DNA from: Methylophaga sp.
Lineage (GTDB): Bacteria > Pseudomonadota > Gammaproteobacteria > Nitrosococcales > Methylophagaceae
Assembly (NCBI GenBank): GCA_002733105.1
Contig: NVUI01000008.1
Location: 50,507-114,506 of the forward strand
Reading direction: 5' to 3'
Length of the DNA: 64,000 nucleotides
The translations under genes were made by a program, and so were the position numbers. A model generated the notes under the pieces. The model had not been told where the DNA came from. It saw nothing but the letters and a program-made list of their open reading frames with translations, and did not search any database. Shown one piece after another: positions 3,214 to 58,267 of the stretch (positions are counted from its first letter, which is position 1; each line of letters starts with the position of its first letter).

Positions 3214-4011
3214 TTACTGCAAAATAGTACGTGAGTTTATAGGCTGTAATGGCCTATTATTAGGTTCATGTAAAACTTCAACAAAAGGATCAATTTGTTG
3301 TTGCTGCACTGTCATCACTTTTTTCATCACTAACCATTGCACACCTTCTGAACATGGTGGTGTTGTTAGCGAGCCATTAAAGCGATAGTAATCTTGGTTT
3401 GTAGGTAAGATATCGGCGACATTCACCATGGTTAATAATTTCTGTGTTTCTCCAGCCTTTGAAGGCATAACTGACCAGATATTCTTGAGCCATTTATTTG
3501 CCGATGCTACTGCAATCACTTGGCGAGAACCGTATTTATCAGTCTGAACTTCAAGTCCTTTATTGGGGACACCTTGTTCAAACATGACAGCCACTACAGC
3601 TAAATTTCCTTGTTCATCCGCATGAACTAAATGTGCTTCAAGTGGATAAGACTGTCCATTAATATGATTTTCACTAGGTGCATGAAAATGAACCTGCAAT
3701 AAATTAAATGTTTTACCTGTTAAATTGATGGAACTACCTTTTTCATAATTTACCTGAATCGTATGGCCATTATTTATAACTTCATGTCCACCGGGCTGAT
3801 AATTAAACATGATTGGCTCGAGATCTGCTTCAATAAACCCTGTTAAATTTACCGGTGATTGATTTTTGCCTGAGCATGCAAAATTATCTGCCGTCAAACT
3901 TGCCCAGTTATCAGGACCTTGATGGCCTGAATAGCCCCAATGGCTATTTTCTGCTGCATACACACTGCCCGTAAAAGACAGTGTAGCAGCGAAAATGAGT
4001 AGTTTTTTCAT
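3214..4011 (-). CDS. periplasmic alpha-class carbonic anhydrase
   Basis: Sec signal peptide (..GSVYA/AE) followed by alpha-CA hallmarks: HWGY..GP..W, QSPVN, NNGHT, FHFH.PSEH, EAHLVH, GSLTTPPCSEGV.W. Confidence 0.92.
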   Translation of the reverse strand: MKKLLIFAATLSFTGSVYAAENSHWGYSGHQGPDNWASLTADNFACSGKNQSPVNLTGFIEADLEPIMFNYQPGGHEVINNGHTIQVNYEKGSSINLTGKTFNLLQVHFHAPSENHINGQSYPLEAHLVHADEQGNLAVVAVMFEQGVPNKGLEVQTDKYGSRQVIAVASANKWLKNIWSVMPSKAGETQKLLTMVNVADILPTNQDYYRFNGSLTTPPCSEGVQWLVMKKVMTVQQQQIDPFVEVLHEPNNRPLQPINSRTILQ

Positions 4012-12406: not shown

Positions 12407-12828
12407 TGTTCGGTCAAAATAGACAACAGTTACGCCAAATGTACCACGATACATGGCAAAAAAAACAAGCTAATGAGTCATTGTCAGCACTAGAATCTAT
12501 GGTTACCCAAGTTATTATTGAACACCCTGAATATCATGCTATATTTAATAGTGAAGCCAGCTTAAGCCAAGAATATTTTGTTGAAAATGGTGAGACCAAT
12601 CCTTTTCTCCATATGGGATTACATATCTCCCTACACGAACAAATATCGACTGATCGCCCAAGCGGTATCCGGATCTTATATCAACAATTACAAACTAAAT
12701 TTGGCAATGCACATGATACCGAACATCATATGATGGAATGTCTAACGGAATCATTGTGGCTTGCCCAGCGTAACAATCAGGCACCTTCAGAATCTGATTA
12801 TCTAATAGCATTACAGAAGTTATTATGA
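12406..12828 (+). CDS. DUF1841-family protein
   Basis: 140-aa soluble protein. It resembles what I remember of DUF1841 proteins (QLRQ...W.K, HPEYH, NPFLHMGLH). The family assignment needs an HMM check. Confidence 0.55.
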   Translation: MFGQNRQQLRQMYHDTWQKKQANESLSALESMVTQVIIEHPEYHAIFNSEASLSQEYFVENGETNPFLHMGLHISLHEQISTDRPSGIRILYQQLQTKFGNAHDTEHHMMECLTESLWLAQRNNQAPSESDYLIALQKLL

Positions 12829-13222
12829 ACAAGCAAATTACAGCTTATATTGAATTTAGTTATAAAGGCAAAAACTTAGTACCTAGTGCTGTGTTGAATC
12901 TTGAACCCTGATGCAACAGCATGGGGCAATCCCTGCACTGCATCAATTATTGGCAAGATTGAATAACATTGATAATTATTCCTACGAATATGAAATGATG
13001 CTGGCTGAAGGCGTCATATTTAGTGATGCGCAAGGGTTAGCACAAAAATTTCTTACCAGTGCTGATTTTGATCAGCTGGGCTTTGGCACTGGCATGAGGA
13101 GGAGGCTTTAGCAAAGCTAGCGCCCATCATTAAACAGCATCTTGATATAACAGATATTGAACAACAGCCCGATCTGAAGACGGTGTTGATAGCCGCCTGG
13201 AAATTAGGTAAAGCGAAATAAT
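12825..13222 (+). pseudogene. small conserved-looking gene broken by two frameshifts
   Basis: Three consecutive coding-like segments lie in three frames. The first is ATG 12825 (ATGA-coupled to the upstream stop) to the stop at 12909-12911. The second is tracked ORF 12911..13111. The third is frame 3, open from 13072 to the stop at 13220-13222 (..WHEEEALAKLAPIIKQHLDITDIEQQPDLKTVLIAAWKLGKAK). Confidence 0.6.
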
Positions 13223-13225
13223 CGT

Positions 13226-14005
13226 TTAGTATTTGAAACCGACTAACATTTCCTCAGCAACCCATGATTGTAAGAAACTAATCGCTTTCATCGGCGTTTG
13301 TTCTTCACTAAAGAAATCCAGTAATTTTTCACATATCACGGCAAAGGTTTCACCCTTCATAGCCAAACTTAATATTGCAATTTCTGCTGTCGATAACACT
13401 CTGTAATGACTAACTAAATCTGATCGTCGCCACAATATCCAAGCCATAGAGGCTGTTTGTTCTATTTTGGGTGGCTCATTTTCTTCGGCCAGTGCTTTCC
13501 AGACAGGAAAGCTATTGTATTGTAACCATAATATTTGCACTGATTTTTGAAAGATGAACTGTAGTGAACCCCAGGCCTTTTCTGGCAATGCAGCCAGATC
13601 ATCTAATGTTGCAAATTGCAGATCTTTAGCATCAAAACTGTCAGCAAAAGCTCGCTCTATGCATGCCAACTCAAAAAGTTCAGCCAATTGATTAAAGGGT
13701 GCTTCATCCCGTACTAGTTCGGGTAGGTTAATACTAAAGTAACGTAAATTAGTCGTATGAGATGGATATTTTTCAATATATCGCTCCATCAATAGATCAA
13801 ATTGATCGTCGCCTAAATAACTTGCCAATTTGTCATAATCAGTCGTAATTGCTTCTTTTAATCTTAATTTATAAGCTGTCGCGTAGATATCAAGCCGACC
13901 CTTTGCTGATAACATGGGCGTTGATTCAATATCATCAATAATAACGGAGGATTCATCCAACAAATAATCCATAAAATGAGTTTGTAAATCCTGTAAAGTT
14001 GGCAT
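13226..14005 (-). CDS. DUF2063-family partner protein of the MNIO enzyme (BufC/HvfC-like)
   Basis: 259 aa, start coupled (shared ATGA at 14005) to the DUF692 gene. The N-terminal LQ..F...L and YR.N/YKLRL motifs are typical of DUF2063 proteins found next to DUF692. Confidence 0.8.
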   Translation of the reverse strand: MPTLQDLQTHFMDYLLDESSVIIDDIESTPMLSAKGRLDIYATAYKLRLKEAITTDYDKLASYLGDDQFDLLMERYIEKYPSHTTNLRYFSINLPELVRDEAPFNQLAELFELACIERAFADSFDAKDLQFATLDDLAALPEKAWGSLQFIFQKSVQILWLQYNSFPVWKALAEENEPPKIEQTASMAWILWRRSDLVSHYRVLSTAEIAILSLAMKGETFAVICEKLLDFFSEEQTPMKAISFLQSWVAEEMLVGFKY

Positions 14006-14874
14006 TACGCAGCCCCTACCAATATCTTATTTCCACTGATTTCTAACTGCTCAGTAGTGAGCACTCGATTGGCAATTTTTTCTGCAATAGCGAGTTCTTG
14101 ATGTAACTCAGAAAAGGGGGGGATATTATCATCTCGCTCAATCATTGTACTGACGGCACCAAAGCGCCCAAGTGCATATTCATATAAATCCCATACCGGA
14201 TCACAGACATCATGATCATGAGTATCAATAATCATCTCGCCATTATAGCTATGGCCAGCGAGGTGAAATTGCATCACACGATCACTGTCTATACCATTCA
14301 CATAGTGTTGTGGTTCAAAATGATGATTATTAGCACTGACAAAAATATTATTAATATCAAGCAAAATATAACAATCTGCCCTTTTTGCTATTTCGTTTAC
14401 AAATTCCCATTCAGCCATTTCAGAATTATTGTAAGTGACATAACTCGATAAGTTTTCAATCAACATTTGCTGACCTATGATGTCCTGAACTTGTTTGATT
14501 CGATCAGCAATATGATCAATCGTCGCTTCATTATAAGGTAGCGGCAGTAGATCATGACTATTAATATGATTCACTGTTGTCCAACACAAATGATCTGAAA
14601 TCCAGTGTGGCTCAATACGATCAATTAATTGTTTAAGTTTTTGTAGATAGGCAGTATTCAAGGGATCTGTACTACCAATAGACATGGAAACTCCATGCAT
14701 TACCATCGGGTAATCTTCGCGTATTTTATCTAGATTTGCCAACGGCTTGCCGCCAGGAATCATGTAATTCTCAGAAATAATTTCAAACCAATCTACCTGA
14801 GGTTTGTTATCAATAACATGTTGATAATGATCCGTACGTAAACCCAAGCCAAAACCTAAAAAAGGACGCGTCAT
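14005..14874 (-). CDS. DUF692-family multinuclear non-heme iron oxidase (MNIO; BufB/HvfB/MbnB-like)
   Basis: Family blocks GFGLGLR..H, VDWFEIISENYM, HGVSMSIGS, ISDHLCW, DLLPLPY, IENLSSY, EWEF, LLDINNIFVSANNH, HLAGH, IDTHDH and MIERDDNIP. An AGGAAA Shine-Dalgarno lies upstream. Confidence 0.92.
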   Translation of the reverse strand: MTRPFLGFGLGLRTDHYQHVIDNKPQVDWFEIISENYMIPGGKPLANLDKIREDYPMVMHGVSMSIGSTDPLNTAYLQKLKQLIDRIEPHWISDHLCWTTVNHINSHDLLPLPYNEATIDHIADRIKQVQDIIGQQMLIENLSSYVTYNNSEMAEWEFVNEIAKRADCYILLDINNIFVSANNHHFEPQHYVNGIDSDRVMQFHLAGHSYNGEMIIDTHDHDVCDPVWDLYEYALGRFGAVSTMIERDDNIPPFSELHQELAIAEKIANRVLTTEQLEISGNKILVGAA

Positions 14875-14890
14875 CGTTTAATTTCCTACT

Positions 14891-15063
14891 CTATTTATCT
14901 GCTTTACCACCTGCATCAGCACATGCTTTTGCCGTCTTACAATCATTATGACCTTTACAGTACACTACATTATAGGCAAAATATTAGCCGTTCTTACTAT
15001 ATTTGTCGCAGCAATCACAAGTGTCGAGCCCGTTAGCTTAGAAAGCTTTATGGCTTCTCTCAT
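14891..15063 (-). pseudogene. frameshifted short paralogue of the Cys-rich precursor (bufferin/DUF2282-like)
   Basis: ATG at 15063 gives MREAIKLSKLTGSTLVIAATNIVRTANILPIM* (stop at 14965-14967). A second frame, open only from 14983, reads [30 protein letters not shown] (stop at 14891-14893). Both halves parallel the intact precursor at 15168..15506, and the DNA block accacctgcatcagcacatgct is shared. Confidence 0.6.
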
Positions 15064-15088
15064 TAATTATCTAAAATCGAGCTTAATT

Positions 15089-15127
15089 AAAAAAACGCCG
15101 TGTCAGTCACAAAAGCACAAACACGGC
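15089..15127 (-). terminator. intrinsic terminator (second of two) after the precursor gene
   Basis: On the minus strand a gccgtgt / acacggc stem (7 bp, 17-nt loop) is followed by G plus U7. Confidence 0.55.
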
Positions 15128-15137
15128 ATTCCTCATC

Positions 15138-15162
15138 AAAAAAATAGCTCATAATGAGCTAT
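15138..15162 (-). terminator. intrinsic terminator immediately after the precursor gene
   Basis: On the minus strand an atagctca / tgagctat stem (8 bp, 3-nt loop) starts 6 nt after the TAA stop and is followed by U7. Confidence 0.6.
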
Positions 15163-15167
15163 CTAAT

Positions 15168-15506
15168 TTATTTACCTGCTGTACCACCTGCATCAGCACA
15201 TGCTTCAGCTGTCATTGCTGCAAAGCCTTGGCCTTTACATGATGCTTGTCCTTTACATGCATTACCGGCTGTTTTACAGTTTGCTTGGCCTTTACATGCG
15301 TTATCTGCTGTTTTGCAATCATTATGTCCTGCACAGGTATTACCAGCAACTTTACAATCATTATGTCCTTTACAAGCTGTCACACCATAACAATGTACAA
15401 GTTCTGCACTCGAAGTACTGGCTCCAGTTGTAGTGGTTGCACAGCCTACTAAACTTGCCGCAGCAATAGCTAGAGCTAGTCCTGTTGTTTTCTTAAGTAC
15501 GCTCAT
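15168..15506 (-). CDS. Cys-rich, internally repeated signal-peptide precursor (bufferin/DUF2282-like), predicted lipoprotein
   Basis: Best start is MSVLKK at 15506, with GGGAGA 7 nt upstream; the tracked ORF start at 15536 has no SD. The signal peptide ends in the lipobox LVG/C22, followed by a Thr/Ser linker and [14 protein letters not shown] (DUF2282-like CYG..K.G.NDC). Four tandem 13-aa C-x5-C modules follow. There are 10 Cys after the lipobox Cys. Confidence 0.8.
15219..15374 (-). repeat. four tandem 39-bp coding repeats inside the precursor gene
   Basis: The units are [13 protein letters not shown] / [13 protein letters not shown] / [13 protein letters not shown] / [13 protein letters not shown]. 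The repeat also creates three spurious plus-strand ORFs. Confidence 0.8.
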
Positions 15507-15723
15507 AAATATCTCCCTTAAAATATTAAATCTCAATTTTGAATCAAAACCCTATTCAATTATTTTTAAATGAATAATGACCAAAAAATGAGGAGGCATA
15601 TTTGCCTCTCCAAGCTAGACGCATGCTAAAAGATTTAGTTACAAAAATGGTCACATATTTCTTTGTTATTATTTCAATTAAGCCATATAGTATTGATATA
15701 TAAATTAATTCTATGGTTATATT

Positions 15724-16728
15724 ATGAAAGCGTATGGTTTTAGCAGCAGCAATTCTCAGCCAATATTGTTTGAGCAACCCACAGCTCAACCAATAGGCCA
15801 TGATCTGCTTATTGAGATTGAGGCTATTGCAATCAATCCTGTTGATATGAAAGTAAAAGCGGGGATTAGCAATACATTGCAGACACCTAAGATAATAGGT
15901 TGGGATGCCTGTGGTACGGTGACCGCTATTGGTGACAAAGTGGTGCTGTTTAAGGTTGGAGATAACGTTTTTTATGCGGGTGATGTCACACGGCCCGGAT
16001 GTTATGCCGACCATCAACTAGTGGATGAACGCATTGTCGGACTCGCACCTAAGTCACTCTCTGCTGCTGAAATTGCAGCAATGCCTTTAACAAGCATCAC
16101 CGCATGGGAAGCCTTATTTTCTCGACTCAAAATCACGCGGGAACACGATGCAGGGAAAACAATTCTGATTATTGGTGGTGCAGGTGGGGTTGGCTCTATT
16201 GCTATTCAGCTGGCTAAAGTTATTGCTGATCTTAATGTTATTACTACAGCGTCAAGGTCTGAAAGTGAAAAATGGTGTTTAAAAATGGGGGCTGATCAGG
16301 TGATTAACCATCATGGGGATTTAGTCCATCAATATCATGCTTTAGCACAACACGATCCTGACTATATTTTATGCCTTAATGATACTGATCGGCATTTTGC
16401 TGCCATGGCAGCGTTAATTGCACCTCAAGGAATGATTTGCAGCATCGTTGGCAGCCAAGAAAAACATGATTTAGACTGTCTTAAGTCTAAAAGTGCCGGT
16501 TTTGTTTGGGAATTTATGTTCACCCGTCCCATGTTTAACACCCATGACATGATTGCTCAACATCATTTACTTAACCAAGTTGCACAATTATTAGATGAAG
16601 GGAAGTTAGTCAGTACTTTAACTCAGATTATTGGCCCGATGACTGCCGACAATATTAATACTGCACATCAAAAAATTCAGACAGGTACAACAATGGGCAA
16701 GCTGGCATTAGCCCCTATATCAGTATGA
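15724..16728 (+). CDS. zinc-binding alcohol dehydrogenase / quinone oxidoreductase family protein (MDR superfamily)
   Basis: GWDA.G.V, GD.VFYAG...RPG..A, PLTSITAWEALF, GGAGGVGSIAIQLAK and TASR.ES..W blocks. Confidence 0.85.
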   Translation: MKAYGFSSSNSQPILFEQPTAQPIGHDLLIEIEAIAINPVDMKVKAGISNTLQTPKIIGWDACGTVTAIGDKVVLFKVGDNVFYAGDVTRPGCYADHQLVDERIVGLAPKSLSAAEIAAMPLTSITAWEALFSRLKITREHDAGKTILIIGGAGGVGSIAIQLAKVIADLNVITTASRSESEKWCLKMGADQVINHHGDLVHQYHALAQHDPDYILCLNDTDRHFAAMAALIAPQGMICSIVGSQEKHDLDCLKSKSAGFVWEFMFTRPMFNTHDMIAQHHLLNQVAQLLDEGKLVSTLTQIIGPMTADNINTAHQKIQTGTTMGKLALAPISV

Positions 16729-16820
16729 TCATAATAAGCAATAATCTCATACATGGCGATAACAACATTATCATCGTATAATTGATGATCTAAATTTAAT
16801 TCTTCAGCTAAGGTTTAATC

Positions 16821-17303
16821 ATGGATACACAAAAATCAAGCAAATTCTTTGTTGGCAGCATCGTTATTTTTCTTATTCTTTTTCTAGTAATTAAAATTAT
16901 TCTTGCCTCAATGCTAGATGTTGGAAAAAATGCTGTTACTCCTGAAAGCATGACAGATGAAGATGTTGTCGAACGAATTAAACCTATTGCTCAAGTTAAT
17001 GTCGGTGCCCCCCCTGTCGTTGAAGTAGCCGTCGTGGCTACGGCTGCCCCCGCGATCAGTTCAGCGGGTGGTGAAAAAACAGTCAAACAAGTCTGCGCTC
17101 TATGCCATCGCACAGGCATGATGAGCTCACCTAAATTAGGTGATGCAGATGGCTGGGCTCCTCGTATTGAGAAAGGTATTGATACACTTTATGCAAATGC
17201 TATAAACGGTTTTAATATGATGCCCGCTCGTGGTGGTAACGCAAGTTTAAGTGATGGTGATGTTAAAGCAGCAGTTGATCATATGCTTTCATTAGTGAAA
17301 TAA
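16821..17303 (+). CDS. membrane-anchored c-type cytochrome (cytochrome c5 family)
   Basis: N-terminal TM helix, a single CALCH heme site, and the downstream GFNMMPARGG block typical of c5. Confidence 0.85.
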   Translation: MDTQKSSKFFVGSIVIFLILFLVIKIILASMLDVGKNAVTPESMTDEDVVERIKPIAQVNVGAPPVVEVAVVATAAPAISSAGGEKTVKQVCALCHRTGMMSSPKLGDADGWAPRIEKGIDTLYANAINGFNMMPARGGNASLSDGDVKAAVDHMLSLVK

Positions 17304-25463: not shown

Positions 25464-28247
25464 TTAGGCTAATTGTTGCGCTTGTTCTGGTTTTGGTGGC
25501 AAAGGTGACAAATAACCGATCACCAACATTAGCCCACCCACCACTAAGAAGGTGATAATACGCGAAATTGAGCCACTATCAGCAAGGTCAATTAAAAACA
25601 ATTTAGCCACCACTAGGGCTAATAGTCCTGCGCCTATAAACCACAGTAGTCGATATGATTTTTTAGATCCAATACTCATTAATATTACCGCAATCAAACT
25701 CCACACTATCGATGTTGTTGATTGGTATACCGTTGAATGCATCAGGGAATAACGGCTATACGACACATCAGCAAAGAAATGAACTGAACGAGCAATAACG
25801 GTATTTAACCAAATGAAACTCATCACGCCTGCCACGCCATAAATGACCGTTGCTGGCATAACAACAATTTGTGTTTCTTCTGATTTGTTAATAAACCACA
25901 TCCAGCCAACAATCACAGAGAATGCAATGGCCTGTGCAATATCCAGTGGGTTAATAACAGGAATATAACTTAATGGCGAAGGTAAACCTGCACTATGAAT
26001 AGCCACTACCTGCCAACCTATTAGAAATAACATGATCGGCAATAAGCCCCAACAATAATATGCTCGTTTAAACTGATTCACTGGCCACATTATTTTTTCA
26101 CCACGACGCATTAGACTTTCAGCTAATGTCACCAATACAAATCCTACGGCACTCATTGTCCAAACACTGGCAAGATTTGTTATACCATCTAGCCAATCAG
26201 TTACCGCCCACGTCATAATGAAGGCAATCATTACTACACCACTTGCATGCCAAATGTTTAATACAGTCTCAGACCATAGCTGCTCTTTTCTACGTAATAC
26301 CAAAAAATGGGTAAATAAAGCCACTGGCCATGCAAGGTAACCCAAACTTTCAAAAGGCCCCATAGCTGAATTGTTAAATAGATAACCGGCAAAATCACCA
26401 AGTAATAACAACACCATCATCGGGGTAAACAAAATGAATGATAATGAAATTTTTGACCATGAAAGCTGGTAACTTAGTGTGGCTTGCACAAAGGTTGTTA
26501 GTGCAAAAAACAATATCATTGCTGGTAGCTCATAGTGGTTGGAAACATAACGTTCTATTTCTATAACACCTGCCATAAACCACCAAATCAAGCCCCAAAC
26601 AACCATTATCACGTTGAGTTGCCCCTCAAACTGATAGGTTTGTTGCTGATTTTTTTGGTATAAATAAGCAATCAAAAAAGCAGCTAAACTCACCAAAACC
26701 ATCCCCATAAAAGCACTATTAAGCAAGGCGATGCTATTAGGTAAATAATCCTGTGTTGATTCAATAAATATTAGGCCAGCACCTACTGAAAGTAATAAAC
26801 CAAAAACACGGGGTACTAAGTGTGACTGCCGTAGACCAATCCAAACTAATGCTGCACCTTCTAGTGACCACACAGCGGCAGTCCATCGGCCATCAAAATA
26901 TAAAGGAATGGCTAAACTGGCAAAGGTGACAGCTAGTGCAAGAAAAGACTGTGCCAATAACCTCATTCCATTTTTGTCAGCTTGCCACAATTGTCTGGCC
27001 AACCATAAATAAATGATCGCCATCACCACAGCCGTGATCGCCTGTCCATATTCAAACTGTTCAACTAAACGGCTTTGCAAAGCAAAAACAATCAGTGGCA
27101 AACCAAACACTAAAGTGCCATCAATATAGCCTTTCAGCTTGGGTGCTTGTCTAGAAGAAAACAGTATGGAGATCATTAAATAAAAGGCATAAAACAAAAT
27201 TAGAAATGATTCTGTTGAAACAAAATTTTCAGCTTGATACGCCTGATATCCCCATGCGGCACTAATTGCAAAAGTAAAAACAAAACCAACTAAATTCAAC
27301 ACTCGCCAAGATTTAAACCATGCAATGCCCAAAATACCTACATTCAGCAGCGTATAATAAGAAAACAGTGAAATATGACTACCCCCCCCTGTCGACATTA
27401 ATATTGGTGCTAAAAAACCGCCAACCGCACCAAATAAAGCTAAAGACTTAGCATTTTGCTGCACGGCCAAAACACCGGATAACACGACCAGCAAGAACAT
27501 CATCACAAAGGTAAAATTAGCAGGTAAAACTTGATAAAATTTACTGGCTGCAAATACTGTTAAATATAATAAGCCAATACCCACACCTTGTAATATCAAC
27601 CCATATTCCAACTTCTGTTCACGCAATCGCCAACCAACCATCAGCATGCCAATACCTGCAGCAATCACCCCTGCTAACCGTAGTTCTATTGGGAATAAAC
27701 TTCTCTCCGCAGCATATTTCAACAAAAAGGCAACACCAAAAAACAAAACAATCGCTCCAATTTTAACCACGACATTACCTGTGGTAAAAAAATCTCGTAT
27801 TTTTGAATACACTTTATCGGCAAGATCGTGACCTTTATCTGCAGCAGTTTGCTCATGCTCAGTTTGTTCAAACACAGCCCAGTCGGATTCTACTGCTGCA
27901 GGTTTCGGCTTATCATCAAACTTATTTATATGGGCAAACACATCATTTACTTCAGGTCGTATTAACGTTTTAGCCATATCCGATAAGTGACTTGAAAATA
28001 CTGTTGAATCAGCGTGGGGCTGACCCTCAGGATTCTGCTGTGAGTGAATTTCAGCATCACTGATTTCTGAATGGCTGGCAACGCCTGTAACCTTCTCAAG
28101 TTCCTGTTCTAATTTAGATATTCGACCCTTCATACTGGATATCATGCCAAAAGCTAAGCCAATAAAAAGCCCTAAAACAAGCCCCTCTTCCTCAGCAACA
28201 GCCGCACCGATAAACAGTCCAAGTAAAGTTAAAATAATGGTGATCAT
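25464..28247 (-). CDS. DUF2339-family large polytopic membrane protein
   Basis: 927 aa. A Gly-zipper TM and a coiled-coil/acidic N-terminal region are followed by more than 20 hydrophobic segments. The family call is from overall architecture only. Confidence 0.6.
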   Translation of the reverse strand: MITIILTLLGLFIGAAVAEEEGLVLGLFIGLAFGMISSMKGRISKLEQELEKVTGVASHSEISDAEIHSQQNPEGQPHADSTVFSSHLSDMAKTLIRPEVNDVFAHINKFDDKPKPAAVESDWAVFEQTEHEQTAADKGHDLADKVYSKIRDFFTTGNVVVKIGAIVLFFGVAFLLKYAAERSLFPIELRLAGVIAAGIGMLMVGWRLREQKLEYGLILQGVGIGLLYLTVFAASKFYQVLPANFTFVMMFLLVVLSGVLAVQQNAKSLALFGAVGGFLAPILMSTGGGSHISLFSYYTLLNVGILGIAWFKSWRVLNLVGFVFTFAISAAWGYQAYQAENFVSTESFLILFYAFYLMISILFSSRQAPKLKGYIDGTLVFGLPLIVFALQSRLVEQFEYGQAITAVVMAIIYLWLARQLWQADKNGMRLLAQSFLALAVTFASLAIPLYFDGRWTAAVWSLEGAALVWIGLRQSHLVPRVFGLLLSVGAGLIFIESTQDYLPNSIALLNSAFMGMVLVSLAAFLIAYLYQKNQQQTYQFEGQLNVIMVVWGLIWWFMAGVIEIERYVSNHYELPAMILFFALTTFVQATLSYQLSWSKISLSFILFTPMMVLLLLGDFAGYLFNNSAMGPFESLGYLAWPVALFTHFLVLRRKEQLWSETVLNIWHASGVVMIAFIMTWAVTDWLDGITNLASVWTMSAVGFVLVTLAESLMRRGEKIMWPVNQFKRAYYCWGLLPIMLFLIGWQVVAIHSAGLPSPLSYIPVINPLDIAQAIAFSVIVGWMWFINKSEETQIVVMPATVIYGVAGVMSFIWLNTVIARSVHFFADVSYSRYSLMHSTVYQSTTSIVWSLIAVILMSIGSKKSYRLLWFIGAGLLALVVAKLFLIDLADSGSISRIITFLVVGGLMLVIGYLSPLPPKPEQAQQLA

Positions 28248-29636: not shown

Positions 29637-30974
29637 TTAGGATCCTACTTTATTCAATATTCTAAGTTTTTTGAGATATTTTGATTTTTTTACTTGTTTA
29701 CCCCAAGCGTCATATAGCGTGACTAAATTTTCCAATGCAACTTTAAGTTCTGGTTTCAGTGCACTTGAGACTTCGAGCAATTCGAAGGCCTGTAAAAATA
29801 AAGGTTCTGCTTTCTTATATTGACGCTTGCTATAGAAAATAGCGGCAGCACGAGCCGCTATATTAGATGCTAGCTGTGGTGATTGCTGAAGTTTGTTATG
29901 AAGTTCAACACTTTGTAAATAAAGTTTGAGCGCTTCCTCTTTATTGCCTAGATCTTCTTCAAGACTGCCTAAATTACCCAGTATCAATGCCTGCTCAACA
30001 CTGTTGTCTTGTCCTAATTGATGCAATGTTGTTAACGCTTTTTGATAGAGAGGCTTAGCCTTATCGAATTGTTCTTTTTGTTGATGATCTAGTGCCAATT
30101 CATTAAGATTCATAACGTTTATCAGTGATGGTTTGTCTTGATGCTCCCGAGTCTTGGATGCTTGTACTCGTAGATGGATTGCTGCTGCTTGTTTGTTTTG
30201 TACATCAAGAATTACTGCCAATCGTTCTAGTGTTTCGGCGATACGAACATCATCCATTTTTAGTGTTTTCTGCTCATAACTAAGCTCTTGCTCTAATGCT
30301 TGTTGGGCTAATATTGCTTGTCCTCGTTTCATGTGAGCTTCGGCTAGTGCATAACTAATCTGGCGTATTTTTTCATTGAAAGATGAGGCTAGGTTTTCTT
30401 TTTGATATGTCTCCACAGTACTAGCCACGTCGATAGTAGCTTTGTAATATTGCAATTTATTATTGAGTCTGGTGAGTGCTTGTGCCGTTTTTAAAGCGGC
30501 ATCTCCATGTGTTTTTAGATTCTTACTTTGTATCAACCACGCTGATTGATAGGCTGTGATAGCTTGTCTTTCTTGACCTGATTGCTCCAGGAAATCACCT
30601 TTATTGAATAACATCATAGCTAATTTGGGGTGATCTTTTGCATATAACTGCTCGGCCAGTAGCAAGGCTTGATCAAGCGAGGTTAATGCTTTTTTTTTAT
30701 CACCTTTTGCCATCAGTACAAAGGCTAATAAATTAAGGCTACTGGCTTTAAATTTTAAGCCATTATCTGCTTTGTCAGCCCTAATAATAGCCTGATTAAG
30801 CAATGTTTCAGCATCGTTATAATTGCCCTGCTGATAAAATATTGTTGCTTGTTGCTGATAGTTTTGCCAACTGCTGTCTGCATGTAACAGTGGACTTAAT
30901 AACAGCATAACTAAGGCTGTAGATACCGATCCTAATACCAGTGAAACAGAGGCTGTAAAAAGTGAATGGAACAT
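29637..30974 (-). CDS. secreted/periplasmic tetratricopeptide-repeat protein
   Basis: Hydrophobic signal-like N-terminus (..LLLSPLLHA/DSS) followed by many 34-42-aa TPR-like units (..A..Y.QAL.L....G......A....NLA.....). The start lies 2 nt after the Slam stop. Confidence 0.7.
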   Translation of the reverse strand: MFHSLFTASVSLVLGSVSTALVMLLLSPLLHADSSWQNYQQQATIFYQQGNYNDAETLLNQAIIRADKADNGLKFKASSLNLLAFVLMAKGDKKKALTSLDQALLLAEQLYAKDHPKLAMMLFNKGDFLEQSGQERQAITAYQSAWLIQSKNLKTHGDAALKTAQALTRLNNKLQYYKATIDVASTVETYQKENLASSFNEKIRQISYALAEAHMKRGQAILAQQALEQELSYEQKTLKMDDVRIAETLERLAVILDVQNKQAAAIHLRVQASKTREHQDKPSLINVMNLNELALDHQQKEQFDKAKPLYQKALTTLHQLGQDNSVEQALILGNLGSLEEDLGNKEEALKLYLQSVELHNKLQQSPQLASNIAARAAAIFYSKRQYKKAEPLFLQAFELLEVSSALKPELKVALENLVTLYDAWGKQVKKSKYLKKLRILNKVGS

Positions 30975-30976
30975 GG

Positions 30977-32470
30977 TTAAAAGCTCCTTTCTAGTTTGAA
31001 ACTAATCTGATTACGCTGATGGCTGAATAGCCAATCCAGATTACTGTGAACAGTACGGTATCTTAAAGTAAGGTTAGGTGTGAAACCTGCAATCTTAAGT
31101 TTAGAAGCCTTTAAAACCACGGTATAGTTTTGCTCTATATCACTACGTTGCTCACCTAATATCTTACTAAATTCATGATTATCTCGTTTACGAACAGAGG
31201 CAAAAGCAACCGCATTAATACCATAAGAAAATTGTTTGGATACACCAAGTCTCAAACCCCATTGTGTATAAGCTAGCGTTTTCTCATTTGCCTTATTTTC
31301 TAACCAATCAATACCACCAAATACTATCCAGTTTTTAGGTAACATTTGCCATATTGTGGCATTAGCCGAATATGACTCCCCTTCAAAACGACTATGGCTT
31401 TCTTTTCGATAGTCTAGCTTTTTGTAATCTGCTTCTAATTTAAACATCCGTTTATTGGAGATATTTCGAGTCCATTCACTATGTAACCCCCATGCGCCAT
31501 AGCGTATTTCATTACCATAGGATAATAATTCAAAAGAAGGAGCGAACCGGATCTGATCATCTAAATCTTGATAACGATAACCGAATTGGCTAATGGATGT
31601 TGCTTCATTATAGTCACGATAATCTTCATAGCTTTGACCATAGAGCAAGGTGCGAAAGTACATGCCATGATGGCCACTGATAGGCAGCTGTTTATTGATA
31701 GTTAATTCGTAATCTACACCATGAGCCTCAAGGGCATCGGGAGTTTTTCGATCGTAGAGGCATTGACCTTGATAATATAAAAAACAAGTAAAACTCTCCG
31801 AAGATTGGTTGAGGTTATCATTCCATATTGCACCGACAGCAAATGAGCTAGTCCAACTATTTCTCTGTTCCAAGGCCTTAGTAAAACTCATAATGGTATT
31901 AATAACACCTTGTTGCTGACTATTTGTAGAGTCTAGTTTAAGATTAACTTTATCAAATTGTTGTTTAGCTTCTTTATCTTTATGGTCTTCAAATAATATT
32001 CGAGCAAGTTCAAGTTGCCCGGGTAAAAAGTCAGGGTTCAATGATAAAAGGTGGCGATATTCCGTCTCTGCTAGATCCATATCACCTTGAACTCTAGCCA
32101 GTGAGCCTCGAGCATAGGCTAATAATAAGGGATCAGCTTTAGCCAGACTTTGATATTCACTTAAAAAATAAAGCACTGCTTGCCACTGTCTTTGTTGAAT
32201 TGACACATAGATCGCACGACCCAAATCATTTGCATTATGTTTTACTGGATAAGACTTACCATTTAAGGTTATTTTTGGATGGTGTCCCTGCAGATAATCT
32301 TCATTTTTTAATAATTCCTGTTGCTCTTGATTTGTCTGCTGTTCAATAGATTGCTCTATCCGTAATCGCGTATCTAAATCATCAGCTACCGCGGTTAAGC
32401 TAATAAGTAGCGTGATAATTAAAGCAGTAATACGGTAATAATTAAACTGAGATTTTAATAACGGCGACAT
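30977..32470 (-). CDS. surface lipoprotein assembly modulator (Slam; DUF560 outer-membrane translocon, type XI secretion)
   Basis: Signal peptide, a periplasmic TPR segment (GDMDLAETEYRHLLSLNPDFLPGQLELARILFE), then a roughly 300-aa segment of alternating beta-strand pattern ending in a terminal F (..ISFKLERSF). It lies adjacent to a TbpB-like cargo and a TBDR. Confidence 0.8.
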   Translation of the reverse strand: MSPLLKSQFNYYRITALIITLLISLTAVADDLDTRLRIEQSIEQQTNQEQQELLKNEDYLQGHHPKITLNGKSYPVKHNANDLGRAIYVSIQQRQWQAVLYFLSEYQSLAKADPLLLAYARGSLARVQGDMDLAETEYRHLLSLNPDFLPGQLELARILFEDHKDKEAKQQFDKVNLKLDSTNSQQQGVINTIMSFTKALEQRNSWTSSFAVGAIWNDNLNQSSESFTCFLYYQGQCLYDRKTPDALEAHGVDYELTINKQLPISGHHGMYFRTLLYGQSYEDYRDYNEATSISQFGYRYQDLDDQIRFAPSFELLSYGNEIRYGAWGLHSEWTRNISNKRMFKLEADYKKLDYRKESHSRFEGESYSANATIWQMLPKNWIVFGGIDWLENKANEKTLAYTQWGLRLGVSKQFSYGINAVAFASVRKRDNHEFSKILGEQRSDIEQNYTVVLKASKLKIAGFTPNLTLRYRTVHSNLDWLFSHQRNQISFKLERSF

Positions 32471-32484
32471 AAAACAGGCTCATT

Positions 32485-32527
32485 AATAGAAAAAAGAAAA
32501 GCCGAGCATGACTTCCATGCTCGGCTT
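32485..32527 (-). terminator. strong intrinsic terminator between the cargo gene and the Slam gene
   Basis: On the minus strand a 12-bp perfect stem aagccgagcatg / catgctcggctt (5-nt loop) is followed by UUCUUUUUUCU. It ends 15 nt before the Slam ATG. Confidence 0.85.
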
Positions 32528-32549
32528 AACACAACACTGTTTTACAACA

Positions 32550-33311
32550 TTAATCCTTGGTACCACCAAATGAGGTATCAAAGATAGTTCCTGCAAAGTC
32601 AACCATACCCGCTAGGTCCGCTTGGCCATTGTAGAACTGACCAGAAACATCACCACCTGTAGCCGAGAAAATCGCAACTGTTGCGCTTGCTGTACCCGTA
32701 CCAGTAATAGACGCATCGGGATTAATGGTCACTGTACCGATATTGACAGAAGATAGTGCACTGGACATTGATCCTGTTAATGTTGAATTATCAAAATCAG
32801 CCGTAAAGGTTCCGCTTAGGGCACCATTTATTCCAGCATAGTAATTGTTAATACCTTTAACAGAATAAGTAGCAGTACCGGTTGTGGTGATTGATGTATC
32901 AGGATTATCACCTGCATAGTAGACTGTACGTGTTGCAGCAAAAGGTAATCCAGTATCAGACCATTCGCCAAACCAAATATCGCTAGTACCCACTTGGGCA
33001 AAATTAAAGACACCTAAATCATCATGGTCAACAGGTGCACCGCTATAAGGGAAGCTCAAGCTATAAACACCATTAACAGGGCTGGTGAAACCAGCCAAAC
33101 CTTGGAAATCAACCAATAAGCCGGAGAATACTGGAAAGGCGATACCTGTTCTACCAGCGGTATGAGGTGGCATATTGAAATTTGATACGCCCACTGTAAT
33201 ATTTGTAATATTAGATGATCCACCTACTACTGTGATTGCTTGAGCCTGACCTGCAAGAGCAAAGGTAGTTAATGCAAGTGCAATGCTACTGATTAATTGT
33301 AACTTTTTCAT
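32550..33311 (-). CDS. secreted TbpB-like/hemophilin-like beta-barrel protein (putative Slam cargo, non-lipidated)
   Basis: SPase-I signal (..AGQAQA/ITVV) and no Cys anywhere. The C-terminal half has the 8-strand barrel pattern of Slam substrates (ATYSVKG.., GTFTADFDNSTLTGS.., ITGTG.., VSGQFYNGQADLAGMVDF.., ending SFGGTKD). Confidence 0.72.
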   Translation of the reverse strand: MKKLQLISSIALALTTFALAGQAQAITVVGGSSNITNITVGVSNFNMPPHTAGRTGIAFPVFSGLLVDFQGLAGFTSPVNGVYSLSFPYSGAPVDHDDLGVFNFAQVGTSDIWFGEWSDTGLPFAATRTVYYAGDNPDTSITTTGTATYSVKGINNYYAGINGALSGTFTADFDNSTLTGSMSSALSSVNIGTVTINPDASITGTGTASATVAIFSATGGDVSGQFYNGQADLAGMVDFAGTIFDTSFGGTKD

Positions 33312-33405
33312 TTTATAACTCCTGATTGTGATTACTTATTTTCAAAGTGAAAATAAGGTGTAACTAACAAAGAGGCCTCTTTGTGTTTTCTGACCGAACG
33401 TTTTA

Positions 33406-36400
33406 TTAAAAACGGGCAGTCAAACTTAGTTTTAGGGTCCTACCCGGCGCCGCCATCGCAGAGCGGGTGGCCGGATCAACATAATATTGGTCGCTTAAAT
33501 TGCTGCCGCTTAACTCAACAATAAGCTCATCATTAATGTTGTAACGGGCATAGGCATCCATAATAATCACTTCATCCCAACTATAAGCCGTGTTAAAGGT
33601 ATATCTGTATCCAGGGTTACCGGTGGTGAAAATATGATCGAGGTACCAGTCTAGATCATCATTTTCATACTCTTTATAGTAGGTAAAGCGGCTACCAAGT
33701 TCTAATTTCCGTTTAAAAAATCGGCCGCCAACAGACCAATTGGCTGATAATTTTGGAGTGGCTTGTACCAACTGATAACCACTGGGAAATCCATATTCAA
33801 AACAGGTGGGTATAGGATTTTTAATGGAGTGAAGTAAGCCCGTAACAGAGAGTTGAGCGGCAGAGTCTTTATCACAAATTTCATTTTGCAAGGTGTAATT
33901 AACACCTAATTGAGTGAAAAATCGGCCACTATCATAGCGAAAGTCCAGTTCAATACCTTTTATTTTCTGCTCATCAATATTATTAAATGTAAAATTAGTA
34001 TCACGCTCAATCACATTTTTAGTGAGATTCTGATAATAGGTCAGTTTAATATCAGCATATTCAGCATCGGGTAACCACTGGGTTAAATCATGCACATAAC
34101 CTATTTCCCAGTTATAAGCATGTTCTGGTTTTAAACTAAAAGCTCTTGTGTTGGCAGAAAAGCCAATGGTGCTTTCAAACATACTGGGGTAACGTAAAGT
34201 TTCAGCATATTTAAAATAGCCGCGGCTATGCTCGGTAAATTCATAAGCCGCTGTTAAATGTGGCACCCAGCCATGGTCTTTCTGTTTTTTTGCTTTTTGA
34301 GGTTCGGATTTTGTTTGCGGAAGGCCAATACAACTAGATATATCTGGTACGTCTGATAAATCACCATTACTGCAAGGGTTGGTGCTTAGATCATAATTGC
34401 CATCGGCATCTGGATACCAATTGCCAGCACTATTATTATGTGTGCTACTGCCAAGGAGAATAGGATTACTTTTATAGGCCGCTAATAAAGTTTCATATAG
34501 ATTCTTAGTCGCAGCATCTGGAGCTAGTGCGATAAAAAGTTCAAGTTGTGCGATAAAATTATCACGTACTACCTGATTAGCTTGTAGCTCTGCGGTAGTA
34601 TAGGGCGTAAAGGTACTATAACTAAGCTGGTAATGAGTAAGATTAAATTGTGTAAAATCATTGTGTTTATCTAAAAAATCATCAAAAGCCCAATAAGATG
34701 AATAGGTCATACCACCATTTATTGTTAAACGATTGGTAGTTTGCCATGCTAGGTCAAAATTACCATCCCATTCTTGACGGCGGCCTGCTCGGGGGAAACT
34801 GTGGAAAGGAATTGTCTTGGTAAATTCATAATCATCAGCTGAAGACAGTTTTTCACGTTGAAAATGGCCACCAACAGTTAAATCTAATTTACTCGATAGA
34901 TTCATCTTATTGCTAATGGTTAAGCCAGCACGGGTATTAGTAGAATTAACGGCAGCACCATCAACCAACAGACCATCTATTGGGGTACCATTATCGATTC
35001 TCTGCTGATTAGGAAAGCCGCCCGAGGTATAAGTATCACTCTCGGTATCGGTATACCAAAGCGTGCTTTGTAAATCTAGCCATTTATTATCAACCGGCTT
35101 ATAACTATAGTCGATGTTATATGCCTTGGATGTGACCTCACTTAAAGGCCATTGCACCTCACCAGCAGCATCCGAACTCACTATTCTTGATGGCATGATT
35201 TCACCATAAGTGCTATCTGAATGGCGATAATTTAGGCTTAGTTTTTGATCATCCGTAATATGCCAACTACTTTTTAATAACCACGATGCCATCTTGCTGG
35301 AGGTATTATGTACTTCATCCCCCGGTTGCCACAAGCCGGCCAGTGCTCGAATTCGATCGCGAAATTCTTTTGCATCGGTAACACTACTAGAATAATAGTC
35401 AGAATTATTATTACCGGAAAAATAATTACCGCGTTCACGGTAGGCATAGGCTGCTAAAAAATCAAACTTATCTAATGTTTTGGCCGCCGCTAGACGATAG
35501 GAATAATCGTTACCATTAAGTGGATTAAGATCATTACCTGATTTTGATTTAGGTGTCACTCGCAGTGTTAAATCATTAAAAGGAGCAACAGCATTGGCAG
35601 GGTAGCCCGCTACATTGGTCGCCAACTCGCCAGTGTGTAAATCTGGCACCCGTTCATCAACGGCGTTACTACTGCCCTCGACTTTTAATTCAATACCAAA
35701 ATCTTCACCCTCTTCAATAATATCTGCAGGCTGCAAAGTCGTTACCACCATCGCACCACCGACACCACTATTTACATCACGTTCATTGGTGGCACCTTTG
35801 TGAATTTGGATAGAACCAATAAGATTAGGATCAATATAGTTACGATTGGTAGCACCGTTATAGCCCCGCCATACGGTCAGTGCTTGTTCGGTACCATCAA
35901 TAATCACTGGCACACGACCAGGCCCTTGAATACCACGAATATTGAGATCGAGGGCGCCACTATTACGCGCTTCACCACTGAATACTCCTGCGATCCCTTG
36001 CAGCAGATCTGATGGAGTGGTGCCTTTGTAACGCTCTATTTCCACTTTCCCCATATAAGTGGTAGAGGTATTTTTATCATAAACATCGTCATAGCCTATT
36101 TCATCTCGACCATAGCCAGACTGGCGAGAACTTTCGACTGTTATAGTCGGGATATTAGTCACATCACCAACTTGTTTGGCTTTGATGGTATAACTGCCAT
36201 TTTGAGCTTGTACGATCAGACCTGTTCCTGCCAAGATACGAGTTAATGCACTGTTTATTGAATAAGTGCCTTGAACACCGTTACTTCGTTTTCCTGCGGT
36301 CAAAGATGCATTAATTGAAAGATCAATCCCTGCTTTCAATGCAAAATCATTGAGCACTTTATCCAGTGAACCCTGGCTAATTGAATAGTGATGTGCACTA

Positions 36401-36519
36401 GCTTGACGAGTATTCTCTGCTGACCAAGCCAATGGGCTTAATCCTGCAAAAAGGGCCATACTGATTGCTAGTTGTATTAATGCAAATGGTGTTAACGGAC
36501 AGCGCTTTGTTGCTTTCAT
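33406..36519 (-). CDS. TonB-dependent receptor with N-terminal STN signalling domain (transducer type), 1037 aa
   Basis: Signal peptide, STN domain (YSISQGSLDKVLNDFALKAGIDLS...SYTIK), plug (..DLLQGIAGV..., IRGIQG.GRVPVIIDG), a long barrel and terminal ..LSLTARF. Confidence 0.92.
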   Translation of the reverse strand: MKATKRCPLTPFALIQLAISMALFAGLSPLAWSAENTRQASAHHYSISQGSLDKVLNDFALKAGIDLSINASLTAGKRSNGVQGTYSINSALTRILAGTGLIVQAQNGSYTIKAKQVGDVTNIPTITVESSRQSGYGRDEIGYDDVYDKNTSTTYMGKVEIERYKGTTPSDLLQGIAGVFSGEARNSGALDLNIRGIQGPGRVPVIIDGTEQALTVWRGYNGATNRNYIDPNLIGSIQIHKGATNERDVNSGVGGAMVVTTLQPADIIEEGEDFGIELKVEGSSNAVDERVPDLHTGELATNVAGYPANAVAPFNDLTLRVTPKSKSGNDLNPLNGNDYSYRLAAAKTLDKFDFLAAYAYRERGNYFSGNNNSDYYSSSVTDAKEFRDRIRALAGLWQPGDEVHNTSSKMASWLLKSSWHITDDQKLSLNYRHSDSTYGEIMPSRIVSSDAAGEVQWPLSEVTSKAYNIDYSYKPVDNKWLDLQSTLWYTDTESDTYTSGGFPNQQRIDNGTPIDGLLVDGAAVNSTNTRAGLTISNKMNLSSKLDLTVGGHFQREKLSSADDYEFTKTIPFHSFPRAGRRQEWDGNFDLAWQTTNRLTINGGMTYSSYWAFDDFLDKHNDFTQFNLTHYQLSYSTFTPYTTAELQANQVVRDNFIAQLELFIALAPDAATKNLYETLLAAYKSNPILLGSSTHNNSAGNWYPDADGNYDLSTNPCSNGDLSDVPDISSCIGLPQTKSEPQKAKKQKDHGWVPHLTAAYEFTEHSRGYFKYAETLRYPSMFESTIGFSANTRAFSLKPEHAYNWEIGYVHDLTQWLPDAEYADIKLTYYQNLTKNVIERDTNFTFNNIDEQKIKGIELDFRYDSGRFFTQLGVNYTLQNEICDKDSAAQLSVTGLLHSIKNPIPTCFEYGFPSGYQLVQATPKLSANWSVGGRFFKRKLELGSRFTYYKEYENDDLDWYLDHIFTTGNPGYRYTFNTAYSWDEVIIMDAYARYNINDELIVELSGSNLSDQYYVDPATRSAMAAPGRTLKLSLTARF

Positions 36520-36590
36520 TCTTTAGAAATTACTCTGCTAATGGTCTATACCTCTAAATACCGAATGAAAAGTTAAAACCCGCAACAAAT

Positions 36591-36609
36591 AGTAATAATT
36601 CTTATTATC
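36591..36609 (-). promoter_or_regulatory. possible Fur box upstream of the TBDR gene
   Basis: Minus-strand gataataagaattattact matches the 19-mer GATAATGATAATCATTATC at about 14/19 by hand. Confidence 0.35.
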
Positions 36610-36660
36610 AATTAGAGCAGAAAGAGTTAAGGATGAAATAAATCCTCTAAATGAAAGAGG

Positions 36661-37611: not shown

Positions 37612-38126
37612 AGATTATGCTTTAGCATGGCTATAGTGCAGGCCGCTAATCCTCTAGCAATGTATTTTTCTACTGATGATACCGAGACTTTAAGTTGTTC
37701 AGCAATAGTACGGTAGCTAAGCCCTTCTATCCGTCGCAAAAGGAATGCTTGTCGAGCTTTTTCAGGCAGATTATGTAGTAATTCATCCACTTCAATTAAT
37801 GTTTCTATGGTCTGCAAACGATGTTCTGGTGATTCTTGATTCACCTCAGGTAGTTGGCGAATCGTATCTAAATAAGCTTGCTCTATTCTCCAACGTCGAG
37901 CTTGATCAACAAGTAGACCTTTTGCCACACGAGTTAGATATTGTCGGGCGTACTCCTCTGGAGGGATTTTTCCACTCACTAATATTTTTAAATATGTATC
38001 CTGTAGCAGATCTGCTGCTTGGTGTGAGCAATGGAGTCTTTTTCGTAGAAATATTGATAACCAAGCTTGATGTGCTTGATAAAGTTGAGTTAGATCAGTT
38101 TGCATTTTGTATGTTATTTTGTTCAT
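37608..38126 (-). CDS. FecI-type ECF sigma-70 factor
   Basis: Region 2 (..LQDTYLKIL..) and region 4 HTH (EGLSYRTIAEQLKVSVSSVEKYIARGL). I place the start at MNKITYK (38126); the tracked start at 38189 would bury the Fur box inside the ORF. Confidence 0.88.
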   Translation of the reverse strand: MNKITYKMQTDLTQLYQAHQAWLSIFLRKRLHCSHQAADLLQDTYLKILVSGKIPPEEYARQYLTRVAKGLLVDQARRWRIEQAYLDTIRQLPEVNQESPEHRLQTIETLIEVDELLHNLPEKARQAFLLRRIEGLSYRTIAEQLKVSVSSVEKYIARGLAACTIAMLKHNL

Positions 38127-38156
38127 ACCATTAAAATCTCTATACACAAATCCAAC

Positions 38157-39604: not shown

Positions 39605-39606
39605 AG

Positions 39607-58263: not shown

Positions 58264-58267
58264 AAGC

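Follow-up and report, generated by a model that had tools for sequence, protein, structure and literature searches.

What is made by an operon in which a lipobox-bearing, cysteine-rich small protein built of tandem modules is encoded beside a DUF692 and a DUF2063 protein? The question is raised by a locus in a 64,000-nucleotide stretch of DNA from Methylophaga sp. (contig NVUI01000008.1; GC content 39.5%), which as a whole is called the window here. Three genes lie head-to-tail on its minus strand in the order precursor, multinuclear non-heme iron oxidase (MNIO; DUF692) and DUF2063 protein. We consider it highly probable that they form a chromosomal buf2-type bufferin operon, bufA2-bufB-bufC (a captophorin of the 'Cys-Lys' group), in a Methylophagaceae-like gammaproteobacterium, and that this operon works by the mechanism proposed below. 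The families of all three genes, the conserved ten-Cys architecture of the precursor, its lipobox, a decayed second precursor gene and conserved promoter- and terminator-like elements are established here. An original prediction, made from the DNA letters alone, had placed the locus among the bufferin-class MNIO/DUF2063 operons that make ribosomally synthesised peptides with post-translational modifications (RiPPs), and the scores of precursor and enzyme above the cutoffs of the BufA2 and BufB models bear this out.

The precursor scored 101.1 bits, over two stretches, against the NCBIfam model NF050166 (Cu_RiPP_BufA2, 'BufA2 family periplasmic bufferin-type metallophore'; cutoff 60), whereas Pfam PF10048 (DUF2282) gave no match to it at E ≤ 1. 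Because the precursor passes NF050166 and misses DUF2282, the locus is of the buf2 type and not of the DUF2282 (Buf1) type, contrary to the DUF2282-type precursor first proposed. Membership of Buf1 was ruled out on the missing PF10048 match, the only other match of that kind being a meaningless one of 12 bits to DUF7640; some relatives of the precursor do bear weak precomputed PF10048 matches. The two partner genes lie on the precursor's strand, as had been claimed, and belong to the expected families. BufB matches Pfam PF05114 (374.5 bits) and NCBIfam NF050167 MNIO_BufB (389.8 bits; cutoff 310) and falls below the cutoffs of the HvfB (276.6 bits against 360), ApyH, MbnB and ChrH (57 bits) models. 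It aligns to the solved MNIO structure PDB 3BWW with an E value of 1.5e-48, and the blocks HG.S, SDHL, EN, LD.NN, H.AGH, DTH and ERD are all intact; these are presumably the blocks that house the iron ligands, as in the structures of MbnB. BufC matches the DUF2063 N-terminal domain (PF09836) at 57.4 bits (cutoff 27.2) and HvfC weakly over its full length (22.8 bits; cutoff 142), and a sequence search of the PDB with BufC returned nothing at E ≤ 0.01; DUF2063 partners of Buf2 systems also have an RRE-like domain at the C-terminus. Membership of the oxazolin/fontiphorin ('Lys-Cys') group was considered and rejected, as inspection of the precursor sequence found no EGKCG motif and the HvfB and HvfC scores lie under their cutoffs.

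The founding buf2 operon, bufA2-bufB2-bufC2 of Caulobacter vibrioides (CCNA_03001-02999), has no DoxX gene. Its precursor BufA2 carries six Cys behind a Sec signal peptide; the four central Cys each lose 4 Da on conversion to 5-thiooxazoles, while a disulfide probably joins the first to the last. This modification requires BufB and BufC, which together suffice for it, and does not need the signal peptide; the Caulobacter buf operons are induced by copper through SigF/NrsF and their products bind copper (PMC11626156). Across the family, 90% of Buf2 precursors have six Cys and the rest twelve, as duplicated domains, about 16% are predicted lipoproteins, tandem precursor genes occur, and sigma/anti-sigma genes are found in Buf1 clusters and not in Buf2 clusters (PMC12452194). 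Lipidated bufferins are also predicted in PMC13056109, where DybA, an MNIO-modified RiPP, was shown experimentally to traverse the lipoprotein pathway. Captophorins serve as the umbrella term for these systems, with BufA2 in the 'Cys-Lys' group (PMC13097082).

Against this background, two of the three departures from the bufferin class originally claimed are normal for Buf2, since buf2 operons lack DoxX and lipoboxes are common among their precursors. A Pfam scan of the principal window open reading frames (ORFs) of at least 110 aa, which took in neither of the overlapping ORFs 15556..16017 and 41693..42145, for example, found no DoxX, NrsF, SigF or cop/cus gene; the reported lack of DoxX therefore stands for these ORFs but is no departure, the founding operon being without it too (PMC11626156). 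Likewise, a lipid anchor is indeed predicted by the lipobox rule, yet some 16% of Buf2 precursors share that prediction (PMC12452194). The number of cysteines is another matter.

The ten-Cys precursor and its distribution

The 112-aa ORF with a lipobox LVG/C that had been proposed as the precursor is a well-formed gene. Its ATG stands 7 nt 3' of a GGGAG Shine-Dalgarno sequence (context AAGGGAG); in an alignment the starts of homologues coincide with the ATG position, so the TTG at 15536 is the start of the ORF in a mechanical sense only and not that of bufA. The signal has KK in the n-region, then a hydrophobic h-region, then a lipobox of the pattern [LVI][ASTVI][GAS]C, and the N-terminus as a whole agrees with the PROSITE-style lipoprotein rule, with Cys at 22 and Ala at +2. 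The octapeptide AAASLVGC is retained in the window precursor and its closest relatives. A Thr/Ser-rich stretch follows Cys22, then HCYG, then the modules.

Beyond the lipobox Cys there are, as first counted, ten Cys (residues 39, 45, 51, 58, 64, 71, 77, 84, 90 and 103). They form a core of CysI, four C-x5-C modules and a last Cys, in which all loops keep C-[KA]-G-x3-C-K; the original description of a 14-letter stretch followed by four modules thus had the correct total of ten but counted the first module twice. A 39-bp repeat period is detected at 15234..15314 (TRF). On dissection, the loops of modules M1 and M2 correspond to the first canonical Buf2 loop (CxGHNDC; identity 0.86-1.0) and those of M3 and M4 to the second (CKGQxxC; identity 0.86), with KTAxNA-type linkers after M1-M3, such that the layout is a-L-a-L-b-L-b-T in the window and a-L-b-T in canonical Buf2. 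Where the canonical precursor has six (or 2 x 6) Cys, this one has ten Cys and four loops within one frame. As judged from its sequence, then, the precursor departs from Buf2 in the number of its Cys and not in kind, the family profile still being passed, and its internal loops appear multiplied inside one framing-Cys pair (C39, C103). The amplification of the core into tandem two-Cys modules is accordingly the departure that stands.

How widespread is this form? A protein search with the precursor returned 1076 homologues. Among the best 120, 19 are of about 110 aa, collinear with the window protein and 59-88% identical to it, the best matching at 86-88%; about 100 others are twelve-Cys proteins of about 150 aa. 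In an alignment of the 19 ten-Cys homologues, each of the ten positions is Cys throughout or almost throughout. We counted the form at the level of species by comparing the genomes behind the best 80 loci (numbered from L001), in which it occurs only in L006-L017, that is in at least 12 species-level genomes, with Methylophaga, Methylophagaceae, Piscirickettsiaceae, a Cycloclasticus symbiont and two metagenome-assembled genomes labelled only 'Gammaproteobacteria' as hosts. An exhaustive profile search of 1.84 billion representatives yielded 991 family members, and the best 150 of these comprise 114 six-Cys, 5 twelve-Cys and 4 ten-Cys proteins. The four ten-Cys representatives are two Methylophagaceae-type clusters and two proteins outside the Methylophagaceae cluster: P0142, a lipoprotein that aligns collinearly with the window protein at 54% identity, and P0162, which is His-rich (CKGHGKCGQNGCKSHGKCGQNGCKGHHHCKTAHHACKGHHHC). 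Because the architecture recurs in at least 12 independent assemblies, an assembly artefact was ruled out as the cause of the repeat. The ten-Cys core is, on these sequence comparisons, a rare Buf2 sub-type of narrow known distribution and the sole real oddity of the locus. The published survey of the family mentions neither 'ten Cys' nor Methylophaga, its Buf2 precursors having 6 or 12 Cys (PMC12452194). The variant was originally offered as one not known to be characterised; the family itself had already been described, whereas the ten-Cys form is missing from those counts.

A lipobox is present in 63 of the 101 closest twelve-Cys relatives, and 16 of the 19 ten-Cys homologues have A-x-A type sites in its place.

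Comparison with known systems places these features in context. Like Caulobacter Buf2 (NF050166/NF050167, Buf_6/12Cys), the locus has the three-gene order, no DoxX, a Sec-type signal, a sigma-F-like promoter motif and the framing pattern HCYG...C-x5-C-K loops...GF..M...AC..GG. Unlike it, the window precursor has ten Cys and not six, each canonical loop being present twice, and a lipoprotein signal in place of one for signal peptidase I (SPase I); there is also a pseudogenised precursor in the spacer, and the host is a marine gammaproteobacterium. The closest homologues without ten Cys are twelve-Cys Buf2 proteins (Cognaticolwellia aestuarii WP_077285100; Shewanella, Aliikangiella; 38-49% identity), many of which are likewise lipoproteins and which also have more metal-binding Cys than the founding member. 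In these, however, the whole domain of about 50 aa is doubled together with its framing Cys (about 150 aa), whereas in the window only the internal loops are (112 aa). Buf1/DUF2282 systems (bufA1BCD, gig operon) would share with the locus, by analogy, the enzyme pair, the chemistry, a predicted beta-sheet-plus-helix fold with a framing disulfide and, in Caulobacter, the regulation, but their precursors have four Cys, and a DoxX gene and sigF/nrsF are usually close by; none of these is found in the window, where PF10048 is also unmatched. The 'Lys-Cys' repeat systems (oxazolin/HvfA, fontiphorin and the bulbicupramide precursor MmrA) offer a parallel in that tandem short Cys modules are served by one MNIO/DUF2063 pair, giving seven rings in fontiphorin and six in MmrA, and some members of the group are lipoproteins. 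Their motif is EGKCG, with Lys before Cys, in contrast to the C-K of the window loops, with Cys before Lys in a C-x5-C setting. DybA-type systems (ChrH subfamily) resemble the window in the lipobox Cys, DybA undergoing cytoplasmic MNIO modification and then lipoprotein processing, but differ in the MNIO subfamily (the ChrH model gives the 57 bits noted above on the window BufB), in their macrocycle and hydantoin chemistry and in an unrelated core.

Operon architecture, second precursor and expression signals

The precursor(s)-bufB-bufC order is common to every complete Methylophagaceae-type locus examined. The window genes are about 90% (bufB), about 78% (bufC) and 86% (bufA) identical to those of L001, with no frameshifts, and bufC is 72-81% identical to the bufC in the same position in close relatives. 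The bufB/bufC junction is TAATG, a 1-nt overlap, and not the ATGA coupling first described. In the 293-bp spacer between bufA and bufB there are a pair of terminator-like hairpins and the decayed remains of a second precursor gene.

In L001/L002/L006, L007 and L010 an intact gene for a 90-aa six-Cys precursor of SPase-I type stands between the ten-Cys lipoprotein gene and bufB. Aligned to the intact gene of L001/L002, the window remnant lacks about 46 and 53 bp at two internal sites, its Shine-Dalgarno sequence is gone and it has an early stop, and tblastn with the 90-aa paralogue matches only its 3' part; owing to the deletions, the early stop and the lost Shine-Dalgarno we regard it as a pseudogene. 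Whereas bufB is coupled to the second precursor in L001, a 15-nt insertion has given the window bufB an AGGA ribosome-binding site of its own.

Turnover of precursors is seen across the relatives. L008 and L009 are single-precursor operons from which the second gene is cleanly absent. In L019, L022 and L024 the only precursor is a six-Cys lipoprotein with an N-terminus matching the ten-Cys protein's; for its origin, recombination between tandem precursors (38/49 identity) and deletion of modules 2-3 (37/49) fit equally well. A second clade, L003 and L012-L017, has the reverse order, with the six-Cys lipoprotein(s) first and then a ten-Cys protein of SPase-I type, and L015 carries three precursors. 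Each two-precursor locus examined combines at least one product bearing a lipobox with one lacking it, and which precursor bears it, the ten-Cys or the six-Cys one, is reversed from one clade to the other; the signal-peptide type has clearly been exchanged during evolution.

Upstream of bufA, an alignment of nine relatives contains one strongly conserved block only, TTTTTGTAAC-N16-CGTCTA. The exact extended motif occurs in 9 loci, and 20 of 83 loci have a relaxed form 5' of their first precursor, compared with 1.2% of background 300-nt windows. In Caulobacter, the sigma-F site GTAACC-N16-CGAA, mapped experimentally, drives both the buf1 and the buf2 operons (PMC3511200), and the window's TGTAAC-N16-CGTCTA resembles it in sequence. 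A scan for the sigma-70 consensus was uninformative (18 matches against 11 expected). A terminator-like scan placed a further hairpin in the leader; hairpin-like sequence with a different stem occupies the same position in L008 and L011, and the segment is absent in L001, L007, L019 and L024. The leader hairpin could act as an attenuator or as a 5' stabiliser.

The two hairpins after bufA fold jointly at -33.4 kcal/mol (z = -5.9). The first recurs at the same place in relatives with differing stem sequences, and the stem of the second is kept in L001, L008, L009, L011, L019, L022 and L024. We infer that they are partial terminators that would raise the ratio of precursor to enzyme mRNA. An Rfam scan of 12800..16000 gave only a sub-threshold chance match.

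Proposed mechanism and alternatives

By analogy with Caulobacter Buf1 and Buf2 a mechanism can be proposed in which the thiooxazole chemistry, the ring number, lipidation, sorting and the metal are all predicted from the family. Under metal stress, the operon would be transcribed from TGTAAC-N16-CGTCTA with a SigF-like extracytoplasmic function (ECF) sigma factor whose gene lies outside the window, and two leaky terminators after bufA would make precursor mRNA more abundant than that of the enzymes. BufB, an iron enzyme acting in the cytoplasm together with BufC, would turn the central Cys of the C-x5-C modules into 5-thiooxazoles, up to eight of them here as against four in canonical Buf2, while Cys39 and Cys103 may form the framing disulfide. 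The modified precursor would be exported by Sec; because its signal peptide ends in LVG/C, diacylglyceryl transfer to Cys22, cleavage by signal peptidase II and N-acylation would follow. Ala at +2 would probably have the product sorted by Lol to the periplasmic face of the outer membrane, where a Thr/Ser tether of about 14 residues would hold the core and excess copper would be sequestered in the periplasm. A fuller picture, which we offer only tentatively in its entirety, is that a single fold carries an enlarged thiooxazole loop of up to eight rings, anchored to the membrane and with about twice the canonical metal capacity or a multinuclear Cu site, and that Methylophagaceae-type loci make pairs of anchored and soluble products with one BufBC, of which the window makes the anchored one only.

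Several points weigh against this proposal. The modification, lipidation and metal binding of the window product are predictions by analogy. The +2 sorting rule derives from E. coli. With no sigF/nrsF, DoxX or obvious cop/cus gene among the scanned ORFs of the window, both the regulator and the metal can only be deduced indirectly, and the one ECF sigma/FecR pair that is there (36661..38189) belongs to a haem-uptake locus. Taken in the window alone, the short promoter pattern is not significant (2 matches against 0.56 expected). Since two hairpins and a pseudogene precede bufB, expression of bufBC needs read-through or an unseen promoter. Structure prediction gives little help: AlphaFold2, run with the 19 ten-Cys sequences and then with 120 homologues as input, gave low-confidence models (mean predicted local distance difference test (pLDDT) 44.8 and 51.2), with the four-module region below 50. 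Only the framing strands (37-40, 96-98, 109-111) and one helix (100-105) recur in both, and the modules are unmodelled; the models are thus compatible with a bufferin scaffold of the usual kind whose modification loop is enlarged, but do not demonstrate it; given the poor confidence, we draw no structural conclusion beyond expansion between the framing elements. Finally, FonBC, an MNIO system of a different group, leaves HNDCK and NACKG motifs unprocessed (PMC13097082), from which it follows that MNIO selectivity is enzyme-specific.

It is accordingly possible, if doubtful, that family and export are as proposed but that only a subset of the eight central Cys (four, for example) become thiooxazoles, leaving the extra modules as thiols or disulfides with a role in the fold or in thiolate metal binding; in that case the larger core would not mean twice as many heterocycles. 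Such a subset would suit the selectivity of MNIO enzymes for residues flanking Cys, the unmodified state of the framing Cys in Buf1 and Buf2, and the loop and linker residues in which M1/M2 differ from M3/M4. Yet the C-[KA]-G-x3-C-K of the modified canonical loops is present in each of the four, and the eight Cys are conserved class-wide, as expected if each is a substrate or a ligand. An improbable variant would dispense with lipidation altogether, the precursor being cut by SPase I, or its lipobox Cys being modified by BufB, to give a soluble periplasmic bufferin like the SPase-I ten-Cys homologues. These, with their A-x-A type sites, are after all the majority (16 of 19), and the type of signal peptide has clearly been swapped in evolution, but AAASLVGC, which agrees with the lipoprotein rule, is retained in the window protein and in its closest relatives, a Thr/Ser-rich tether typical of lipoproteins follows Cys22, and lipoprotein signal peptides are common in the Buf2 family.

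Similar considerations apply to the signal to which the operon responds. We think it unlikely, though less so than the loss of the anchor, that the operon answers to, or guards against, something other than copper, be it a different thiophilic metal or a stress, oxidative or from hypochlorite, that a SigF/NrsF-type system perceives. In another bacterium a SigF/NrsF system is reportedly tied to hypochlorite, according to the title and abstract of the report. Sigma-F regulons of Caulobacter react to chromium and cadmium (PMC3511200), MerC-Buf fusions hint at roles with other metals (PMC12452194), a related Microbulbifer operon is not induced by copper, and the Pfam scan found no copper genes nearby in the window. 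Against this, the Buf1 and Buf2 systems that have been studied are copper-induced, Buf1 binds Cu(I) and Cu(II) tightly (PMC11626156), and other thiooxazole peptides bind copper as well. That the locus is decaying and its remaining genes are silent relics seems very improbable indeed. The second precursor is a pseudogene, terminator-like hairpins lie upstream of bufB, and buf-like genes of Microbulbifer are without detectable expression; but bufA, bufB and bufC are full-length and align to L001 at the identities given above without a frameshift, bufB has gained an AGGA Shine-Dalgarno of its own, the same hairpins are found in relatives with fully intact operons, and L008 and L009 also have single-precursor operons.

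The surrounding window and the meaning of the ten-Cys class

The coordinates of the operon and of the other features discussed are collected in the table.

Table. Features of the buf2-type locus and of the haemophore locus, in window positions
Feature	Position	Strand	Remarks
bufA2-type precursor gene, 112 aa	15168..15506	-	signal peptide 1-21, predicted lipid-attachment Cys22, Thr/Ser tether 23-36, ten-Cys core 37-112
bufB, MNIO (DUF692) maturase, 289 aa	14005..14874	-	Pfam PF05114, NCBIfam NF050167
bufC, DUF2063 partner protein, 259 aa	13226..14005	-	Pfam PF09836 residues 7-96; start overlaps bufB stop
Four tandem 13-aa C-x5-C modules	15219..15374	-	M1 15336..15374, M2 15297..15335, M3 15258..15296, M4 15219..15257
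ECF-sigma-type promoter candidate TGTAAC-N16-CGTCTA	15616..15643	-	about 110 nt upstream of bufA ATG
Leader hairpin and T-run	15593..15608	-	terminator-like scan; between promoter candidate and bufA start
First terminator-like hairpin and T7	15142..15164	-	directly 3' of bufA stop
Second terminator-like hairpin (GCCGTGT...ACACGGC) and T7	15097..15127	-	conserved stem
Decayed second precursor gene, six-Cys, SPase-I type	14891..15063	-	signal-peptide remnant (MREAIKLSKLTGSTLVIAATNIV...) to stop, then out-of-frame 3' end
Slam (SlipAM and TPR_Slam)	30977..32470	-	Pfam scan
HphA-type haemophilin	32550..33311	-	
TonB-dependent receptor with STN domain	33406..36519	-	
FecR	36661..37611	-	
ECF sigma	37608..38189	-	
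TonB, two ExbD, ExbB	38379..40831	-	
TPR protein adjoining the Slam locus	29637..30974		

The flanks of the operon match those of L003, with rnf-nth-DUF1841 on one side and an alcohol dehydrogenase and cytochrome c on the other. In the window the latter are a gene of the zinc-type alcohol dehydrogenase family (400 bits on TIGR02817) and one for a class-I cytochrome c (15724..17303, plus strand), divergent from the buf operon; the arrangement is common to the window and to relatives at 69-86% precursor identity (L001, L003), and may reflect plain synteny or a functional link. On the other side, between DUF1841 and bufC (12911..13222, plus strand), a 66-aa ORF at 12911..13111 continues in another frame (..EEEALAKLAPIIKQHLDITDIEQQPDLKTVLIAAWKLGKAK*), a layout that suggests a frameshifted small gene or a sequencing error. 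The 66-aa ORF has no family match in Pfam or NCBIfam, and the Methylophaga locus L003 is without such a spacer.

Elsewhere in the window there is a complete Slam-dependent haemophore locus (30977..40831, minus strand). Display of BufA2 on the cell surface by this Slam was considered and rejected, as Slam adjoins its own HphA-type substrate, 15 kb away. Within a recCBD cluster, recC (58611..61820) and recB (54425..57940) are separated by a ParE-family toxin ORF (57952..58314, minus strand), whose partner antitoxin could lie in the 58315..58610 gap. The window also encodes a eukaryotic-type (alpha) carbonic anhydrase (3214..4011, minus strand) and a 927-aa DUF2339 membrane protein (25464..28247, minus strand).

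The precursor falls in a family described in 2024-2026 that is already covered by curated NCBI models, and the ten-Cys locus opens no long-standing question. Its interest lies within that family. The ten-Cys subclass could act as a natural test of the number of Cys that one BufB/BufC pair handles per substrate, and could reveal whether metal stoichiometry tracks the number of loops. In addition, the pairs of anchored and soluble precursors, lost or fused in close relatives, provide a small evolutionary series on the tethering of bufferins.

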